From Gemmatales bacterium (lineage in GTDB: Bacteria; Planctomycetota; Planctomycetia; Gemmatales; HRBIN36): DNA of 64,000 nt. The position numbers and the translations under genes are program-made. Position 1 is the first letter of the stretch; each line of letters opens with the position of its first letter. The stretch covers positions 864,001-928,000 of the forward strand of contig JBEPZY010000001.1 of assembly GCA_041640595.1 (NCBI GenBank). The letters run 5' to 3'. The notes beneath the pieces were generated by a model. It saw nothing but the letters and a program-made list of their open reading frames with translations. It made no database searches and was not told the origin of the DNA. Of the stretch, positions 44,192-52,747 are shown one piece after another.

Positions 44192-44422
44192 TTACGAACT
44201 CGGCGCAGCCGGGGCACGTTCGCTGGCCTGGAATCCGCTGGTACGATGGGAACCGTCGCAGAACGGCTTGTTTTGGGAATGTCCACAGCGACACAAGGCG
44301 ATGGCGGGTTTGCCAGAAGGAAGCGGGAATGGCTTTCCTTCCGCGTCGAGCACCTGCACCGGGCCTTCGACGACATAAGGTCCGTTATCGCGCACACGGA
44401 TAGTTACCACCGCATCAGCCAT
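44192..44422 (-). CDS. CDGSH iron-sulfur (NEET) domain protein
   Basis: NGPY...ALCRCGHSQNKPFCDGSH; GGAGG RBS before ATG 44422 (the ORF track over-extends to 44854). Confidence 0.93.
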   Translation of the reverse strand: MADAVVTIRVRDNGPYVVEGPVQVLDAEGKPFPLPSGKPAIALCRCGHSQNKPFCDGSHRTSGFQASERAPAAPSS

Positions 44423-44732
44423 GACTCTACCTCCATTAGCTGAAGTGCATCTCCCTCGTATCAGCGTGATGCCAGAGCGCTGAATTCGTTTCGTTTCCCC
44501 CCACAATCGTTCGATTTTGCTCCAGATGATGCGCGTTCCGACTCCGATAATTTTTCCATTAGTCGCATCGTGTCCGAAACCTGTTACGCGAGTCGAAATT
44601 GATCTCCTTCGTTCCGCCAGCGTTCCGATGCTACACAATGGTCGGCAGCGGAACAATAGTTGGGGCGACCGGATAGTTGCACTCCGGTAGTCTTTTATTA
44701 TGCAGGGGGCAGGCGAACTCACAAAGGCAGGT

Positions 44733-45524
44733 TCAGAATTTTTGCGAGGCAAACTCTTCTTTTGGATCGTGTGGCACAAAGAGCCACGATATTTGCTGGG
44801 CCAGGTAAACGACGAACGCTCGTCGAAAGCGTTCCGGGGGCAAGTCGGGGTCAACGGATGCCGGCCCGCTGCCGCGAGGAAACTCCACGTGCAAATGTTC
44901 CTTGATCACCAAATCGCTCAGGACATCCTCAGCATCGGGCATGCGCGCCGGTGCTACTGTGACTGTTACGTCTGCCCGAGCCCGGTACAGCGTTCGATTG
45001 GAGCCATTCTCATAGAGCGAAGGATTGTTGAGCTCGACGAAAATGACCAAGTCGGCGCGCAATTGTCGGGCCATTTCGGAAGGTTCGAGGGCCTGCCACT
45101 GGTCGTTGCGATCTTGCCAGCGATGCACCACGCTGGGTGCCAGCACAACCAGGCGTTCCTTCTCCTGTTCGAACCCCTTAGCCAGAGCCTTGGACAGAGC
45201 ATCATCCAGTTCGCGGGCTAAAGGGCCCAGGTGAATTTGCGTCCCTACGTCCGTGTAAGTTACCACTGCGACGCGAAGAGGCTCCTTGCGTGGCTTGTTC
45301 AACTTTTCCCGATAACTGAGCAGATCAACTGGCGGCGGTGGACGCATGTCTTTGCCGAGCATGACTGCCGTGAAGTATATCAACGTCGGCAAGGTACAAC
45401 CGCTCATGACTGTCGAAAAAATGGCCACGCATACAATGCCAGATACACAAACGCGAACCCGACTTTTCCACCCGCCAGTGCCCATTCGCCCCATCATACC
45501 CCGTTCCTCGCTTCCATGCCCCAA
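44733..45524 (-). CDS. Hypothetical lipoprotein
   Basis: Hydrophobic stretch ending MSGC (lipobox-like) and a globular alpha/beta body; the true start is probably a later Met. Confidence 0.6.
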   Translation of the reverse strand: MGHGSEERGMMGRMGTGGWKSRVRVCVSGIVCVAIFSTVMSGCTLPTLIYFTAVMLGKDMRPPPPVDLLSYREKLNKPRKEPLRVAVVTYTDVGTQIHLGPLARELDDALSKALAKGFEQEKERLVVLAPSVVHRWQDRNDQWQALEPSEMARQLRADLVIFVELNNPSLYENGSNRTLYRARADVTVTVAPARMPDAEDVLSDLVIKEHLHVEFPRGSGPASVDPDLPPERFRRAFVVYLAQQISWLFVPHDPKEEFASQKF

Positions 45525-45619: not shown

Positions 45620-46387
45620 TTACCAGGATCCATTGCGGAGGTAAAGCAAGGCACGAATCAGCCAGCACCCCAAGACGAGCCAGAGCATAGTCCAGGCGGC
45701 CAGAGAACTGAGCCAGTGCCAGTCAGGAAGTCCTAGCGTTCGGCCGCTTATCCCCGCGACCGCGAACCAGACTGCCATGGTGACGGCTAGCAATACCATC
45801 ACCGGGCCGGCCGGGTTGACAGCCAGAGCAGCTCGCCAGTCTCCATGCATGAGCAGGCTGAAGCTCGTGGTCAACCCGCAGCTCGGACATGGCCAGCCGG
45901 TCAATCGCTGAAAGCTGCACGGTGGCAATCCTAACTGCTGATGCGTCCCCCAGCGGCGCGGCTGACCATTCTCGTCATAAGGATTCAGGCTGCGGGCTAT
46001 TCCCAGCACGGTACCAATCAGCAGAGCGATAAGTATCAGGCTGATACGTTGCCACCAGGCCAGTTTTTGCTCAGCCTCGACAGGAATCACTACCGGCATG
46101 ACTTCTGCCGAATCGGTGCTTGCTGTAGCTGGGAGCTCGGGTCGGCCTTCGTTTTGTGGTGTCGGTGCGCTGCCAGTAGCTTCCAGGCGTCCGGGGAGCG
46201 CTGCCATTTCGCTGCGAGCCTTATCTACTTCATCACCTGCCTGGTGTGATTCCGCTGCCGGCACACTATCCGTTGCCAGTGGCCGTGCCGGGGCAGCAGG
46301 GATAGCCGTTTCGGCGGCCCGATGGCAATCGGCAAGCTCATCGGGATGGTGCCCTGCCACAGTCTTCGTGTTTGGGTCGCGCACCAT
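45620..46387 (-). CDS. DUF2752-domain membrane protein
   Basis: GTHQQLGLPPCSF..LTGWPCPSCGLTTSF...HG....NP plus TM helices; disordered N-terminus, start uncertain. Confidence 0.8.
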   Translation of the reverse strand: MVRDPNTKTVAGHHPDELADCHRAAETAIPAAPARPLATDSVPAAESHQAGDEVDKARSEMAALPGRLEATGSAPTPQNEGRPELPATASTDSAEVMPVVIPVEAEQKLAWWQRISLILIALLIGTVLGIARSLNPYDENGQPRRWGTHQQLGLPPCSFQRLTGWPCPSCGLTTSFSLLMHGDWRAALAVNPAGPVMVLLAVTMAVWFAVAGISGRTLGLPDWHWLSSLAAWTMLWLVLGCWLIRALLYLRNGSW

Positions 46388-46538
46388 AACGTCCTCGCCA
46401 AGCCACGACAAGACCAGATCGTATGCAGGACGCGAGATTCTTCCAGAATGGCGCCACGTAGCCGTGGCCAGAAACTATGCCAAAACAATCAGCGGCATGC
46501 ACAGGCTGGACGTCGGAATTCAGCACCCTTGGAGCTGC

Positions 46539-49500
46539 CTATGGGCGGAACCGCCGGGTGAATTCCTCGTAAGCGTCGCGCAGCTCAGGAGGTAGAACCG
46601 GCCGGTCACTCGCATCCACGTCAGCGGATTGCCCTTCACGAGTAGCAGCGCGATTCGGACCTATTGCTCGCCGTCTCCCCTGAGACAGTTCCGCCTGCAC
46701 GACCTGGGGCTTATCGCGAAGCAGGCGCTGGAGTTCTTCGGGCGTTTTAACACCCAGGCGCTGCATTAGCTCACGGGTTGGCTTGTCAATTTCGCCTCGC
46801 TCCATTTTCTTCCGCAAACTGTCCAAAGTCAGGTCGCCCGGAGCTTCTGAGAATTCAGGGTTCGGCTTCATAGGTTTCGTGGCCAGCGGGCTGTCCTGCG
46901 CTGGGCCTTGCCGATCTACACCGGAAGTGTTCCCACCGCTGGTCGGCCCTGCCTGGCTCCCCGGCTTGTCTAGCGGCTGCTGAGAGCTGGCATTTCCGCT
47001 GTTACTACCACCTCCCTGGCCGGGCTCGGAACCCTGCCCTGAATCAGGCTTTCCGCCCGACTGCCCACCAGCATTCGCCTGCCCGGATTGACCGCTGCCG
47101 GCTTGTTGACCGCCGGCTTGCTGATTACCCCCACTTTGATTGCCATTTTGCGGCGATTCCCCTGGCTTTTGGCCTGCACTCGCCTCACCAGGCTGGCCCT
47201 GACCAGGTTTTTGTTGCCCACCTGCCTGCTGGTTACCGCCGCTCTGATTGCTCCCGGCCTGTCCAGGTTGACCGGACTGACCCTGACCGGGCTGCTGTTG
47301 GTTACCTGCCTGGCCACTCGAATTGGACTGGCTAGCACCGCTCGAACCACTAGGTTTTTGACCCGATCCCGACTGCCCAGCCTGGGCAGAGTTGCAACCG
47401 TCTCACCCACCTCCAGGTTTCTGCGGGCCACCTGCCTGCGGCGTGTTATTGCCCTGTGGGCGATTCGCCTGCTGTCCGGCGTTCGGCTGGCCCGGTTGGT
47501 TCCCCTGCGGCTTTTGCGGACCGCCTGCCTGGGCATCACCCTGCCCCTGCTCGCCGCCCATCGGCTTATTCGCCTGCTGTCCGGCGTTCGGCTGGCCGGG
47601 CTGATTCCCCTGCGGCTTTTGCGGACCGCCTGCCTGGGCATCACCCTGCCCCTGCTCGCCGCCCATCGGCTTATTCGCCTGCTGTCCCGCATTCGGCTGG
47701 CCGGGCTGGTTCCCCTGCGGCTTTTGCGGACCGCCGGCCTGGGCATCGCCTTGCCCCTGCTCGCCGCCCATCGGCTTATTCGCCTGCTGCCCCGCGTTCG
47801 GTTGGCCCGGTTGGTTCCCCTGCGGCTTTTGCGGACCGCTGGCCTGGGCGCCACCCTGCCCCTGCTCGCCGCCCATCGGCTTATTCGCCTGCTGTCCGGC
47901 GTTCGGTTGGCCGGGCTGGTTCCCCTGCGGCTTTTGCGGACCGCCTGCCTGAGCACCACCCTGCCCCTGTTCGCCGCCCATCGGCTTATTCGCCTGCTGT
48001 CCGGCGTTCGGCTGGCCGGGCTGATTCTGGGCAGGCTTTTGCTGTGCGTTTACATCGCTTCCACCGCCCTGGTTGGTCGTTTGCGGCTTATCTTCGGGCT
48101 TCCCGGCCGCTGAACCGCCAGCTTGATTTCCAGGCCCCGGCTTCTGGGGTTTATCAGAGGACTGCGAACCCGAGACCGTGCCAGGTTCGCTTTTATCAGG
48201 CGAACGGGAGTTTTGACCTGAACCGCGTTGCTCCGGATTACCGGAACCGCTTTTGTCGGGGGATGGCTTTTCCTCGCCGGAGCCGCTCGGCTTAGCCGCG
48301 TTGTCTTCCGGCTTGGAAGCTGGCTTATCTGCGGTCTCAGGCTTATTGTCCGGGCTGGGTTTCTGCTCATTCGCTCCGCGTTCTTGGGCACCTGGCTTGT
48401 CTGGTTTTCCGGGATTCGGTTTTTCCGGCTCAGACGGCGGGCGTTGCGGTTCGGTCAATTCCAGCAACACCTCCCGCGACTTCCCCGTATTCGGCTCCGG
48501 TCGTTTACAGTCCGTACCCTCTACCCACAGAAGCAGCTTCGTTCCCGCAGCCAATCGCACGGGCTCAGCCGGTCCAGGAGACTTCTGACTATCGCTGACG
48601 ACCACCGCCCGAGTCAGGTCAAGAGTAAGTTGGTACGCTGCTGGCACAATAGGCGTAAACCCATTGGGCTTCTGCAACGGGCCTATTTCCGCAGCCTCAT
48701 GAGCGATGCGAAGAAGCCGTTTTTGACCTTCTACCTCTTGCAACACCAACCAGACGAGGTCGGCCGCAAAATCATCGTTCGCCGTACCTATCACGGCCAC
48801 GGTAGCATCTACCGGGAGTTTGACCACCGGCCGGCCAGATTCGTTTGCGTTGGCCGGAGGCAGTTTTTCCTGGCCGACCTGATCCAGCGTAATCACTGGC
48901 CGCTGGTCCTCAATGACGCGGATGTTGAACCATTGCAACGTGCTGTACTGGTTCGACTTGTTCTTGAGCACCACACTGTAACGCTGCCACCCTTGTTTCA
49001 GAGTCAGCCGGTCGGGCAAAAATACCCGATTGGGCTGGTGATTGGGGTCGCTGTCGGGTTTTTGCACCAACTGGAAAACTTCCTGCCGGGGTGGCTGACC
49101 AGATTCCACCGTCAATTCGCCACTAACAATCGGCTGGTCGGCGAACACGGCTATTTCCACCTGGCTTCCGACCAGCGCCTCGATTTCGCCCACGGTTTGC
49201 GTCTTGGCCTCCCGCCGCGTGTACTCAGGGTAGTGAATTGTGATCTCAAACTGCCGCAGCTCCGGAGGATTGGTCAACCGCTCGACCAGGCGATACACTC
49301 GCGATTGCCCATCTCCGCCTGTTACGCGGAAAAACAATCCGCTGGCAGGAACACTACTGGCTCCCAGCTCCAGCTGCCATTCGGTGCGATACTGGTCAAT
49401 CGCCGTCATGGAGCGGCGAACGGGTTGTTCTCCGGGTTGCGTCCAGGTTTCGAGCCAGGCCTCGGGGGGCACCAGACCGTGTACTTTGACGCGAACCGTG

Positions 49501-50216
49501 ACCGGCTGACCACGCCGCACGGGAATTTCCAGAACTTCCTGTTTGTGCGGTTCAACATAAGGCCCGTCTTTCTCCGGCGCCAAGAGCTCAAACCGCGTAT
49601 CTGGCGGGATGGCCGTATCAGTAAACGGCACCAATGCTCTGGCCACCAGCGACAAAAATTGCTCCGGCACGAACAATGCGAACACGCCCATCACAATGAG
49701 CAGAGTCACCAGAACAAAGAACCAGCGCAAACATTGACCCGGCTGTGCAGCTGCCTCCGGATCGGTGTAACGGAAATCCTCCTGGGCTTCTCGCCGCAAC
49801 GCCTCCTTCACTAGATTCGGGATCGGCCGTTCGCGCAAGTCCAGATAAGCTGTTAGCGCATGGCGTGTAACTTGCGCCGATTTCTCCAGACGCCAGGCAG
49901 CATAGAGCAAGCTCACTTTCCGGCCCAGCGGCACAATGAGACGAAACCAGGCAAAAATCCCGCAGCCCACCAAAAACCCCGCGAACAACACCTTCCGTAG
50001 CCAGCCCGGCAACCCCTCTGGTCGCAACGCCTGGTCCGCCAGTGCCACCACCAACACGTAAACTGCGCAGGCCACCGCCAGAATGAAAACCGCGGTCGTG
50101 ATCTCCGTCCAGCGAATGCGCTCTGCGGTGCGTTGCAACTCGCGTAGCAACCGCTCATCTCGGGGTCGGCCAGCAGATGGTTGCTGCCTTTTCGTCAGCC
50201 CCGCGACTGTGCTCAT
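46539..50216 (-). CDS. Large DUF4175-like membrane-anchored protein with an in-frame TGA at codon 938 (47403-47405); candidate selenoprotein (UxxC)
   Basis: Three N-terminal TMs, Ig-like region with YPEYT, Q/G/P/S-rich tail. The frame stays open for 287 codons after the TGA and joins ORF 46539..46871; GAGGAG RBS before ATG 50216. Confidence 0.75.
47373..47389 (-). promoter_or_regulatory. Candidate bacterial SECIS hairpin
   Basis: mRNA CUGCCCA-GGC-UGGGCAG: a perfect 7-bp stem at +14..+30 after the UGA, with a loop starting GG at +21. Confidence 0.6.
47463..48026. repeat. Coding tandem repeat, 105-bp unit (35 aa), 5 full copies plus a 39-bp partial
   Basis: TCGGCTTATTCGCCTGCTG recurs at 47561, 47666, 47771, 47876 and 47981; encodes NQPGQPNAGQQANKPMGGEQGQGxAQAGGPQKPQG. 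Confidence 0.97.
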
Positions 50217-50426
50217 GGCTAGTCTCCTCGGTGGCCTCGCCCGGGCCGGTCCTGCAACAAAATGGTTCTCCCGTTCACCCAACGAACCGCTCTATCGCAG
50301 ATGGAATTCCCCTCCCTCTACTGTTCAATTGTAGCAGAAACGGTCGCGGAAAGGTAGCCTTTTCCACACGCATATCCGACGACGTTCCACCAGTCATTGA
50401 GAAAGTCTTGGCTCGGAAGTTTTCGT

Positions 50427-52604
50427 TTATCGGAGCAATGCAGCGACCAGTCGCTCCAGATTGGCCGATTCCCGAACCAACTCAACACCACTGGCCAGCT
50501 TCAGCCGTTGTAACCGACTCTCCGCCGCCGGGTGGAATAAAACTGTACGGCCCTCGGTGCACAGGGGCACAAATCCGAATAGCCCCCCGTACTTCATCCC
50601 CCCAGGCAGCAACATTTCGTCCTGAACAGACTTCACCAGGTGAAAGTCGAAACCGGCTAAATCAATGGCGCTGCGGGCTACGGCACCATCGGCCAGGCAG
50701 CGAGCCAGTAACGCACACGGGCCCAGCTTGCTGTAAGCGACCAGCCACACTCCCTGTCCATCTTTCTTGAGCTGATGCGCTGCTGCCAGCAGAGTCAGCA
50801 CATCTTGAACACGGCAAGCGAACACGCTCGGATTATAGCCGAAATAATAACCGGCGTAGGTCGGGTTCACGGTCGGCAGTGGGGTAGGTTTGTCGGGCAA
50901 ATGGTACTCACCCGTCAAAAACACGTCCGCACTAATCACAAGCACCCCCGCGTTCAGCAGCTTCTGCACCTCCGGTACGGGCTTGCCTTGCTCATCGAGC
51001 AAACTGGCCTTGCCGTCAGGGTGAATCCAGACGCAAACAGTACCGTTCCAGTTTTTCGGTTCCAAACCCAGTGCGGGCAGCTGTACATCCGGCCGCGCAG
51101 TGCGTGCTATCAGGCCTTTGTGCAGCGTGAAATCCTTTTCTTCATGCTTTTGTAAAGTGCCCTCCACGATCTCAACAACCGATCGGCCCGGTTCATCAGC
51201 GGCGGGGATCGGCCAGCGGTCTTGAACCATGACACGCAGAGCCGTTCCGACTACCTCGCGATAGCGCTTGACATCCTTGCTCAACGCCTCCATCTGCTGG
51301 TCCGAAGTCTCGCTCAAATAGCGACGCAGCGCCGCCGCATCTTTGGCGTTCGATGGTCGTGGATGTTGTTCGTCGAACACGCTAAGCTGCTTAGGCGGGA
51401 TCGGTTGGAATGGCCTTTCGCTGATCGGTTCCGGGAAACCCAGCTGCAAATGGCGATTGAACCAGTGGTACATCATCTCCCGGCTGACCTGATTGTAATT
51501 GTGCGGAAACGGGAAATACTTAGCCAGGACGCGATCCTCAGCCCCGTAAAGCCCGTAGATGCGCCGCAGTTCGGGCAACCCCACCTGCTCAATGTCTTTC
51601 GTCCAATCGTTGGCACCAGTCATGGCCAGCGGTTTGGGGGCAAACAAAGCCGCGACTTCCACGTTGTTAGTACCGATACGCAGCAGCGAAGCGTTTTCGC
51701 ATTCGCAACCGCCCTGCATGTTCATGGATACCATCACTGCCGGGAATGCGACCTGCACCCGGTCATCCACTGCCGACAGAATGAATGTCTGCGTTCCGCC
51801 GCCGCTGGCTCCGGTTACTCCGATGCGTTGGGTGTCCACTTCCGGTGCCAGACTGAACAGAAAATCCAGAGCGCGAATACTGTTCCAGGTTTGCAAACCC
51901 ATTAAACTTTGCAAGCGCAATTGTGTCTCCACCTCCGCCCCTTGCGCAAAGCCGCCCCGATGAGCGATACCCTGAGAATCAGCGTAACCGACCATGTCAT
52001 AATGAAAAACCACACACCCCATCCGTGCCAGCATGGCACAGCGTGCCTGCAACGGATACCGTGCCCCGTTTTCCGTTTTTTCTGCACCACTGGCCAGTTG
52101 CTGTTTAACTTCCGCGTCGCTGGCCTCGTAAAACCGACCATTTCTCCAGTGTCCGTGAGGACAAAGCACGCCGGCAAATCGCTGTCGCACGTTGGGCTTC
52201 GGTTTGGGCCGATACAGGTTCCCGGTTACATAATGCCCTGGCAAACTCTCAAAATATACCTTCCAGACCGTGTATTCGTCGCGGTCAATGGGGCTATGGA
52301 CGACGGCGTTTAACGGCGTTCGTTCCGGCATGGGCCACAATCCCAGCGCCACCAGAATCTGCTCGCGCAATTCCCGAGCACGGATTTCCCAGGCTTCTCG
52401 CGTCTGGGGTACCTGGATGCGAGTCGTGGTGTTATAATCCCGCGGTTTGCCCAGACGGCTATCTTTCGGCAACGTTTTTCCGTCCAGCACTCGCGTGAGC
52501 GCTTTGCCATTCGGGACCTGCACCTGCTGGGTCTGGCCCGAATCAAGAGCCAACGCCAGGACGGCCGAACACGCAACCGCTGTCAGCAAAGCCTGCCGCG
52601 CCAT
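50427..52604 (-). CDS. Secreted alpha/beta-hydrolase, acetylxylan-esterase-like (two-domain)
   Basis: Signal peptide, LCPHGHW, GVTGASGGGTQT nucleophile elbow, MQGGC.CEN, HNYN. Confidence 0.8.
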   Translation of the reverse strand: MARQALLTAVACSAVLALALDSGQTQQVQVPNGKALTRVLDGKTLPKDSRLGKPRDYNTTTRIQVPQTREAWEIRARELREQILVALGLWPMPERTPLNAVVHSPIDRDEYTVWKVYFESLPGHYVTGNLYRPKPKPNVRQRFAGVLCPHGHWRNGRFYEASDAEVKQQLASGAEKTENGARYPLQARCAMLARMGCVVFHYDMVGYADSQGIAHRGGFAQGAEVETQLRLQSLMGLQTWNSIRALDFLFSLAPEVDTQRIGVTGASGGGTQTFILSAVDDRVQVAFPAVMVSMNMQGGCECENASLLRIGTNNVEVAALFAPKPLAMTGANDWTKDIEQVGLPELRRIYGLYGAEDRVLAKYFPFPHNYNQVSREMMYHWFNRHLQLGFPEPISERPFQPIPPKQLSVFDEQHPRPSNAKDAAALRRYLSETSDQQMEALSKDVKRYREVVGTALRVMVQDRWPIPAADEPGRSVVEIVEGTLQKHEEKDFTLHKGLIARTARPDVQLPALGLEPKNWNGTVCVWIHPDGKASLLDEQGKPVPEVQKLLNAGVLVISADVFLTGEYHLPDKPTPLPTVNPTYAGYYFGYNPSVFACRVQDVLTLLAAAHQLKKDGQGVWLVAYSKLGPCALLARCLADGAVARSAIDLAGFDFHLVKSVQDEMLLPGGMKYGGLFGFVPLCTEGRTVLFHPAAESRLQRLKLASGVELVRESANLERLVAALLR

Positions 52605-52747
52605 AATCGTTCTCCTCTGCATTGGCGACATGTTTGCTTTAGCCACTGCTACCACGCTTCGTCAAGGGACTAAGAGACGTTCGCTCTGCGGTTGCTAACA
52701 TAAACAACCGAGCGCACTGCCGTTTTCTCGGACTAAGGAGGCTTCTC

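Follow-up and report, generated by a model that had tools for sequence, protein, structure and literature searches.

An in-frame UGA in a U-x-x-C motif suggests an unlisted selenoprotein family with selenocysteine in the low-complexity tail of a large membrane protein of Gemmatales

Bacterial selenoproteins have been found mostly through homology to thioredoxin-like enzymes. Here, we describe a candidate selenoprotein gene at positions 46539 to 50216 (minus strand) of a 64,000-nucleotide stretch of the genome of a Gemmatales bacterium (contig JBEPZY010000001.1, positions 864,001 to 928,000; hereafter, the window). Its reading frame is interrupted by a single TGA, which we propose encodes selenocysteine (Sec, U) in a U-x-x-C motif. 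Table 1 of a 2026 review (PMC13188914) contains 119 prokaryotic selenoprotein families and subfamilies, including the thioredoxin-fold UxxC proteins of bacteria (Trx, Prx-like, DsbA/DsbG-like, and TlpA-like). These share with our locus a UGA-encoded Sec in U-x-x-C, the existence of Cys homologues, and a bacterial selenocysteine insertion sequence (bSECIS) hairpin just downstream of the UGA. They differ in that the motif studied here lies in a Gly/Gln/Pro-rich tail, with no detectable thioredoxin domain, of a 1225-residue membrane-anchored protein with immunoglobulin (Ig)-like domains, and in that its state (U, C, G, or absent) differs among close species and also within them. The planctomycete selenoproteins named in PMC4807772 are fdhA and fmdB.

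None of the entries in Table 1 of PMC13188914 is DUF4175-like, and none is described as a large membrane protein with Ig domains whose Sec lies in low-complexity sequence. A preliminary description of the window, made from its sequence alone, had called this context one not known from described families, and the 119 families of that table indeed hold no counterpart. Full-text searches found no literature on this family, judged partly by titles and the starts of abstracts, and the DUF4175 literature, judged in the same way, showed no selenium link. Like the window protein, DUF4175 (PF13779) proteins have a transmembrane region at the N-terminus, after which comes a long extracytoplasmic portion containing low-complexity sequence; they differ in that the window protein falls below the family threshold, and DUF4175 is not among the 119 families of that table. 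The nearest conceptual likeness is eukaryotic. [quoted passage not shown] Selenoprotein S differs in being small (189 aa), located in the eukaryotic endoplasmic reticulum, and served by a SECIS in the 3' untranslated region, whereas the protein described here is bacterial, 1225 aa long, predicted to be periplasmic, and built with Ig-like domains, and its SECIS-like element lies within the coding sequence. Homology between the two is not expected, and the likeness would be conceptual only. Selenoprotein K, also membrane anchored with Sec on a disordered segment, is presumably a similar case. By these comparisons, the putative Sec decoding at our locus is ordinary, and the novelty lies in the family and in where the Sec sits structurally.

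The minus-strand frame spanning 50282 to 46539 contains one internal stop, the TGA at 47405-47403. The elements on which the Sec reading depends are the following.

46539..50216, minus strand: whole gene, 1225 codons if the TGA encodes Sec, from ATG 50216 to TAG 46541-46539; relatives have unbroken frames of 1078-1329 aa with a like architecture.
50224..50229, minus strand: Shine-Dalgarno-like GAGGAG, 8 nt 5' of ATG 50216, read from the sequence.
47403..47405, minus strand: in-frame TGA, proposed Sec codon U938, kept in the contigs of sequencing runs X2, X3, and X5 and most contigs of X6, with a homologous TGA in the genome of relative G003.
47394..47396, minus strand: TGC encoding Cys941, the UxxC partner; Cys at +3 is also found in G003 (UPDC) and P0053 (GPDC).
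47364..47400, minus strand: SECIS-like stem-loop, with upper stem 47389-47383 / 47379-47373, loop GGC 47382-47380, and lower stem 47400-47396 / 47368-47364.

From ATG 50216 there are 937 codons to the TGA, which is followed by GAC GGT TGC (D-G-C, completing the UxxC motif) and by 287 sense codons in total before the TAG at 46541-46539. The read-through product would have 1225 residues including U938, with Cys at 50, 85, 162, 570, and 941, and Cys941 is the sole Cys in its last 655 residues. After the TGA, 177 codons pass without an in-frame ATG, GTG, or TTG; the first is ATG 46871, 178 codons downstream, and no Shine-Dalgarno-like sequence precedes it. These results bear out the preliminary description in its account of one shared frame split by one TGA, a UxxC motif with 287 further sense codons, a lone Cys at +3 in a long tail, an internal ATG at 46871 lacking a ribosome-binding site, and a length of about 1225 aa. 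We rejected the length of the post-stop open frame as stand-alone evidence because 44 of 947 open reading frames (ORFs) of at least 300 aa ending in TGA also have an open frame of at least 287 codons beyond the stop. In public records, the gene appears as a truncated "collagen type III alpha" (a JGI name) or hypothetical protein, plus an orphan 110-aa ORF.

We refer to the genome containing the window as G000 (4.45 Mb, 95% complete) and to the genomes of relatives by numbers from G001 onward. A locus scan with a 3-sequence alignment returned only three loci, among them the metagenome contig L039 and the strain L040, and L039 carries the same TGA with 1 mismatch to the window in 6037 nt (99.98% identical). 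The interval 46900-47560 is present, at least partly, in 20 listed runs from 18 studies, which comprise hot-spring, microbial-mat, and freshwater metagenomes. We compared the Logan contigs of four runs (X2, X3, X5, and X6, from four studies) over 46700-47500. X2 is identical to the window over this interval, TGA included, and is a possible source of it. The TGA is kept in X3 (record 11, 47293-47474) and in X5 (record 18, 47274-47477), each despite three differences from the window. It is also present in most contigs of X6, an RNA library; in a single X6 contig, with a depth of 26.6 out of 129, the plus strand reads G instead of T at 47403, and TGA becomes TGC (Cys). No indels are listed over the interval in the four runs. 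When the 937-aa part was used as a query, 17 of the 23 members of two near-identical protein clusters ended in ...PQKPGGG, and the other six had mis-framed or cut ends. The 17 proteins vary just upstream of this ending (QGNNTPQ, QGDSTPQ, QGDNTPQ, or QASGPQ) and in repeat number, with lengths of 832-937. The TGA lies 58 nt outside a 105-nt tandem repeat. Because it recurs in the contigs of the runs and in 17 of 23 cluster proteins, sequencing error and a private nonsense mutation are excluded. The preliminary description had asked whether the codon might be misread; the same TGA stands in L039 and in contigs of all four runs, with TGC in one X6 contig.

Sequence variation downstream of the TGA has the signature of a coding frame. 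Across the four runs there are 19 post-TGA variant places. Third codon positions account for 12 of these (binomial P = 0.007), and the changes divide into 11 synonymous and 8 non-synonymous, when 34% synonymous would be expected for random transitions (P = 0.028), and within 46700-46946 all three variant places are synonymous. L040, a 98.4% identical strain, has 14 differences over 577 post-TGA bases, of which 11 are synonymous and 3 non-synonymous, and no indel; its contig starts 288 nt short of the TGA and is silent on that codon. P0011, a read-through variant, aligns with the post-TGA translation free of gaps and is identical to it at 277 of 287 positions. These patterns indicate that the post-TGA frame is under purifying selection. 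Given this coding signature and the lack of a start codon for 177 codons, translation of the post-TGA stretch must, as far as the sequences indicate, come via read-through of the TGA.

The C-terminal 133 aa were found in 11 of the 40 genomes of relatives, where they close frames that are unbroken at 1078-1329 aa wherever the contig allows; on this basis, the one-gene architecture is ancestral. At the motif site itself, G003, which belongs to the same genus (identical to P0015; ~55-58% identity), reads CCT GGC GGG CCT GGG TGA CCA GAC TGC, or PGGPG-U-P-D-C, and all 105 codons from its TGA to the end of its contig are open, with the same composition as the tail of the window protein. A degenerate DNA pattern, GGPG-TGA-xx-TGY, matched G003 alone among G001-G004. 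Two other relatives have a pair of Cys: G002, of the same genus, has GGGDCQCN (CxC), and G004, of a sister genus, has SGECAECK (CxxC), in both cases the sole Cys residues of the tail. In the more distant G006, G008, G009, G010, and G039, the tail is without Cys. Among database proteins, 6 of 9 cluster members of the P0017 lineage end in ...PSPGGPG and P0014 ends in ...PQPGGPG, while P0053, a member of the P0017 lineage with the same first 620 aa, continues past this point as ...PGGLG-G-P-D-C. In a maximum-likelihood tree built on the N-terminal 620 aa (19 rows, no chosen row dropped), the genus splits into five lineages, four of which have the stop or U state. The tree is rooted at its midpoint alone, so we can only infer the order in which the motif states arose; the simplest history would run from a Cys pair to an ancestral U-x-x-C in the genus, with later changes to Cys, Gly, or deletion. 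The TGA-xx-TGC of G003, the Cys pairs of G002 and G004, the conserved downstream frame, and the TGA/TGC polymorphism between strains agree with the preliminary description, which had looked to orthologues for TGA or Cys at this codon.

Other searches for the C-terminal part returned little. The 152 aa after the UGA gave nothing meaningful in G001-G003. A phmmer search with the C-terminal 135 aa against 1.84 billion representatives gave 7 matches, and none of the 6 inspected has Cys. A search with the G004 protein returned only its own cluster. A weak match to the C-terminal domain in G024 gave no interpretable reading in the one frame inspected and was set aside.

Downstream of the UGA, the G000 transcript could form the hairpin CUGCCCA-GGC-UGGGCAG (47389-47373), in which the stem-loop starts 13 nt and the loop 20 nt after the UGA. 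It has a 7-bp stem and a GGC loop, with a predicted energy of -10.4 kcal/mol for the 17-nt hairpin and -17.4 kcal/mol with the lower stem. The G003 hairpin has a 6-bp stem and a GGUC loop 22 nt from the UGA, with -9.2 kcal/mol for the isolated hairpin; the two are alike in place and shape and unlike in sequence. The legend of Fig. 2 in PMC13188914 gives bSECIS constraints of a 3-9 nt loop with G in the first two loop positions, a stem of 4-16 bp, a UGA-to-loop distance of 16-37 nt, and a minimum free energy of at most -7.5 kcal/mol. Both hairpins lie within these published limits according to our own script (not bSECISearch), so the SECIS-like hairpin noted in the preliminary description is present. 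As background, among ordinary TGA stops, 12 of 947 are followed at that distance by a hairpin of at least 6 bp, and 4 of 947 by a perfect hairpin of at least 7 bp; among random codons, the corresponding counts are 107 and 33 of 11075. In the Cys-encoding G002 and G004, no such hairpin follows either Cys codon, even at a threshold of at least 5 bp. No variant letters are listed within 47373-47389 in the four runs compared. An Rfam search of 46400-50400 at E up to 10 gave two chance snoRNA-like matches and no SECIS family.

The genome is predicted to be competent for Sec decoding. G000 encodes tRNA-Sec (75.7 bits; tRNA-SeC with anticodon tca according to ARAGORN), selB (387 bits), selA (568 bits), and selD (390 bits, with its own in-frame TGA), all exceeding curated cutoffs; selA, selB, selC, and selD, for which the preliminary description had suggested looking, are thus all in place. 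Genes for selB and tRNA-Sec are also found in G001-G004, so the Cys forms of the motif would not stem from loss of the Sec trait. A genome-wide scan for a TGA with a near Cys and a hairpin gave 90 raw matches, mostly in non-coding frames; the six run on Pfam comprise two thioredoxin-type selenoprotein genes, one gene with a TadE domain (irrelevant to Sec), and three without a family. L056 (G000:C3:187750-188322, minus strand) has a thioredoxin-like/Redoxin domain with DFWADY-U-ASC-K, an N-terminal hydrophobic segment, and the hairpin GCAUCU-GGUUC-AGAUGC, and is probably a periplasmic TlpA-type selenoprotein. L058 (G000:C2:317957-320341, plus strand) combines DsbD_TM with a C-terminal Thioredoxin_7 domain, FTGDT-U-TNC-K, and the hairpin CGAGAAC-AGUGU-GUUCUCG, and is a predicted Sec-containing, DsbD-like transmembrane reductant conveyor. 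Both hairpins are of the simple 6-7 bp type, like the one at 47389-47373. The selD gene (L017, G000:C1:725715-726641, minus strand; ...CAG-U-AGK...) is itself a selenoprotein gene, with a 7-bp stem that includes one G-U pair and a GUG loop ~33 nt after the UGA, on our own reading of the fold. In G002, we also observed a translation-factor GTPase paralogue (G002:C82:133027-134286, plus strand; 177 bits against the selB model, below the cutoff) whose 513-aa open frame contains one in-frame TGA.

The TGA at 47405-47403 is conserved and exchangeable with Cys, it has a Cys at +3 and a SECIS-like hairpin behind it, and it lies in a Sec-competent genome. For these reasons, we put the probability that it is a true Sec codon, and that the gene is a genuine unlisted selenoprotein, at roughly 80%. 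The Sec reading first offered in the preliminary description is favoured by the recurrence of the TGA, the Sec machinery, the TGA or Cys of orthologues, and the geometry of the hairpin.

Several observations weigh against this reading. Some concern the independence and reach of the comparisons: L039 and X2 may come from the window's own sample, and the X6 contigs, being from an RNA library, are no sign of translation and may contain DNA. In G003, the post-TGA frame amounts to only 105 codons and the C-terminal domain was not found, in a genome that is 78% complete. The states of P0014 and P0017 were judged from protein ends rather than from a stop codon, and U is inferred for the P0017 lineage. 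The U of the window and the Cys of the CxC in G002 align with an offset of one residue, in low-complexity sequence. Other observations concern the motif itself. P0013 (a cluster of 4 members), the sister of P0014, reads through without Cys, and P0053 has Gly in place of U. Close to G000, P0011 has GGGGDGGN, with Gly at both motif positions, and its cluster of 4 members has no Cys after residue 620; in P0010 and P0012, also close to G000, the motif segment is absent. The folding z-scores of 69-nt stretches are unremarkable (G000, -1.04; G003, +0.64), and the G003 hairpin is in the centroid structure and absent from the minimum-free-energy structure. Finally, Sec in a disordered low-complexity region is without precedent among the 119 families in the table of PMC13188914, and the prior is lower for it. 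Because natural Gly and deletion variants exist, the UxxC motif is dispensable in nature and not essential for the core role of the protein, and an accessory or conditional function of the motif fits better than an essential catalytic one.

The strongest alternative is a conserved programmed stop, in which the 937-residue protein is functional, the downstream part is made by rare non-Sec read-through or never, and the hairpin modulates termination. Database proteins of several lineages do end here, the Gly and motif-less variants imply that the chemistry of the residue is not essential, and the folding z-scores of the hairpin are weak. A programmed stop would not, however, account for Cys at +3 in three TGA lineages, the Cys pairs of G002 and G004, or the TGC allele in X6. 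It also sits poorly with purifying selection downstream where there is no start codon for 177 codons, with a C-terminal domain conserved across the order, and with a hairpin whose geometry fits bSECIS and resembles that of the genome's other Sec genes. We regard this alternative as improbable. A recent nonsense mutation, leaving a decaying or split gene in this strain, is much less probable still. The TGA is one base from TGC or GGA, and close strains have GGA (P0011) and TGC (the X6 contig), but 17 of the 23 near-identical proteins share the stop, as do contigs of the four runs, each from its own study, and further species of the genus. No indel is listed over 46700-47500 in the four runs, and downstream differences are biased toward synonymous changes. 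An error of sequencing or assembly has a negligible probability: the TGA is near a 105-nt repeat at which assemblies break, and 6 of 23 cluster members are mis-framed or cut, but it lies 58 nt beyond that repeat, it is covered by contigs of X2, X3, X5, and X6 (one X6 contig differing), and G003 has a TGA in a different sequence context.

If the TGA is read as Sec, the full-length protein would have the following parts.

49647..50102, minus strand: N-terminal membrane region with three hydrophobic helices (~aa 39-61, 76-98, and 163-190), from a hydropathy scan; AlphaFold2 places helices at 19-195.
48453..49595, minus strand: approximately four tandem Ig-like beta-sandwich domains, aa 208-588, from AlphaFold2 and Foldseek.
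46947..48419, minus strand: low-complexity tail, aa ~600-1090 (G 24%, Q 20%, P 13%, A 10%, S 9%, N 8%).
47463..48027, minus strand: tandem repeat of 105 nt in 5.4 copies (35-aa units), with a strain-variable copy number.
46542..46946, minus strand: C-terminal helical domain, DLTLDSLRKK.ERGEID ... PPELRDAYEEFTRRFRP, which ends the long frames of relatives.

The N-terminus and the loop at 99-160 are rich in Arg and Lys; by the positive-inside rule, everything after residue 190, tail included, would lie outside the cytoplasm. The AlphaFold2 model covers residues 1-620 only, from a 9-row alignment (mean pLDDT 82.6, pTM 0.46), and predicts helices at 19-195 followed by approximately four beta-sandwich domains at 208-588. 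Foldseek matched these to tandem Ig-like domains (titin, LILRB, and an ice-binding adhesin) at E ~1e-9; the global TM-scores were low, as may be expected for domains arranged like beads on a string. Variation in the copy number of the repeat gives truncated products of 832, 867, 902, and 937 aa, and assemblies often break or mis-frame at this repeat. The C-terminal 115-135 residues are conserved across the order.

Pfam and NCBIfam searches of both protein halves found no family at threshold (for NCBIfam, no families at E up to 0.1, and so no match to the NF04xxxx selenoprotein models named in Table 1 of PMC13188914), and Pfam on the alignment of the C-terminal domain gave weak scattered matches only. 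The same searches detected no thioredoxin-like domain around the UxxC, which sits in sequence of 24% Gly and 20% Gln. Against DUF4175 (PF13779), the window protein scored E = 0.17 and 10.3 bits, below the 27.3-bit cutoff, and 2 of 9 homologues match (best E 6.5e-9). Look-alikes in the Atlas are hypothetical proteins of Planctomycetota, one cluster having PF13779 on 12% of its members, and the source names in the database records of relatives fall within Gemmatales. The preliminary description had called the protein membrane anchored and DUF4175-like: the membrane anchor stands, with three predicted helices, while the DUF4175 label does not hold for the window protein and extends to only two of nine homologues, so that DUF4175 would be a distant relative at best.

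Nothing in the neighbouring genes points to a shared pathway, the upstream one being weakly esterase-like and the downstream one a DUF2752 gene. The upstream gene (50427-52655, minus strand, 742 aa) has weak esterase-like matches (GCE_fung, 2.5e-6; AXE1, 8.7e-5). Downstream, also on the minus strand, are a DUF2752 protein (45620-46411, E 3.4e-17) and a CDGSH iron-sulfur domain protein (44192-44854, E 1.8e-21).

The Sec reading leads to a proposed mechanism. SelB and Sec-tRNA would be recruited by the stem-loop that starts 13 nt downstream of the UGA, and translation would proceed. The product would be a 1225-residue inner-membrane protein in which three transmembrane helices are followed by approximately four Ig-like domains, a disordered tail of ~500 residues rich in G, Q, P, and S that contains the U-x-x-C, and the C-terminal helical domain, with the tail probably in the periplasm. 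On this flexible arm, the U/C pair might form a reversible selenylsulfide, serving as a redox-active or a metal- or metalloid-binding site, and the genome's own Sec-containing DsbD-like and thioredoxin-like (TlpA-type) proteins might maintain it in the reduced state; we offer this function as a tentative possibility. Termination at the UGA would instead yield a 937-residue form without the C-terminal domain, and the balance between these forms could be set by how much selenium is available; such a selenium-dependent switch between 937-aa and 1225-aa isoforms is plausible. The most elaborate version joins these parts: a selenol on a disordered tether spanning the periplasm, in place of a buried catalytic residue, would act as a switchable selenylsulfide or a metal or metalloid clamp served by a dedicated DsbD-like/TlpA-like Sec relay, the UGA would act as a selenium gauge for the 937/1225 aa ratio, and the U, C, G, and deletion alleles would be a standing polymorphism tuned to local selenium. 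Taken as a whole, this combination is doubtful.

If the gene does encode a selenoprotein, it would represent a family of large envelope proteins whose Sec lies in a segment that is intrinsically disordered and of low complexity, and a prokaryotic conceptual counterpart of selenoprotein S. A systematic mis-annotation, in which such genes appear as a truncated "collagen type III alpha" or hypothetical protein with an orphan 110-aa ORF, would be corrected. The wild hot-spring populations would also provide a series of natural alleles of a single codon (U, C, G, and deletion). With this series, one could ask what advantage selenium has over sulfur when it is not part of an enzyme active site, and whether recoding of UGA serves to set the ratios of protein isoforms.

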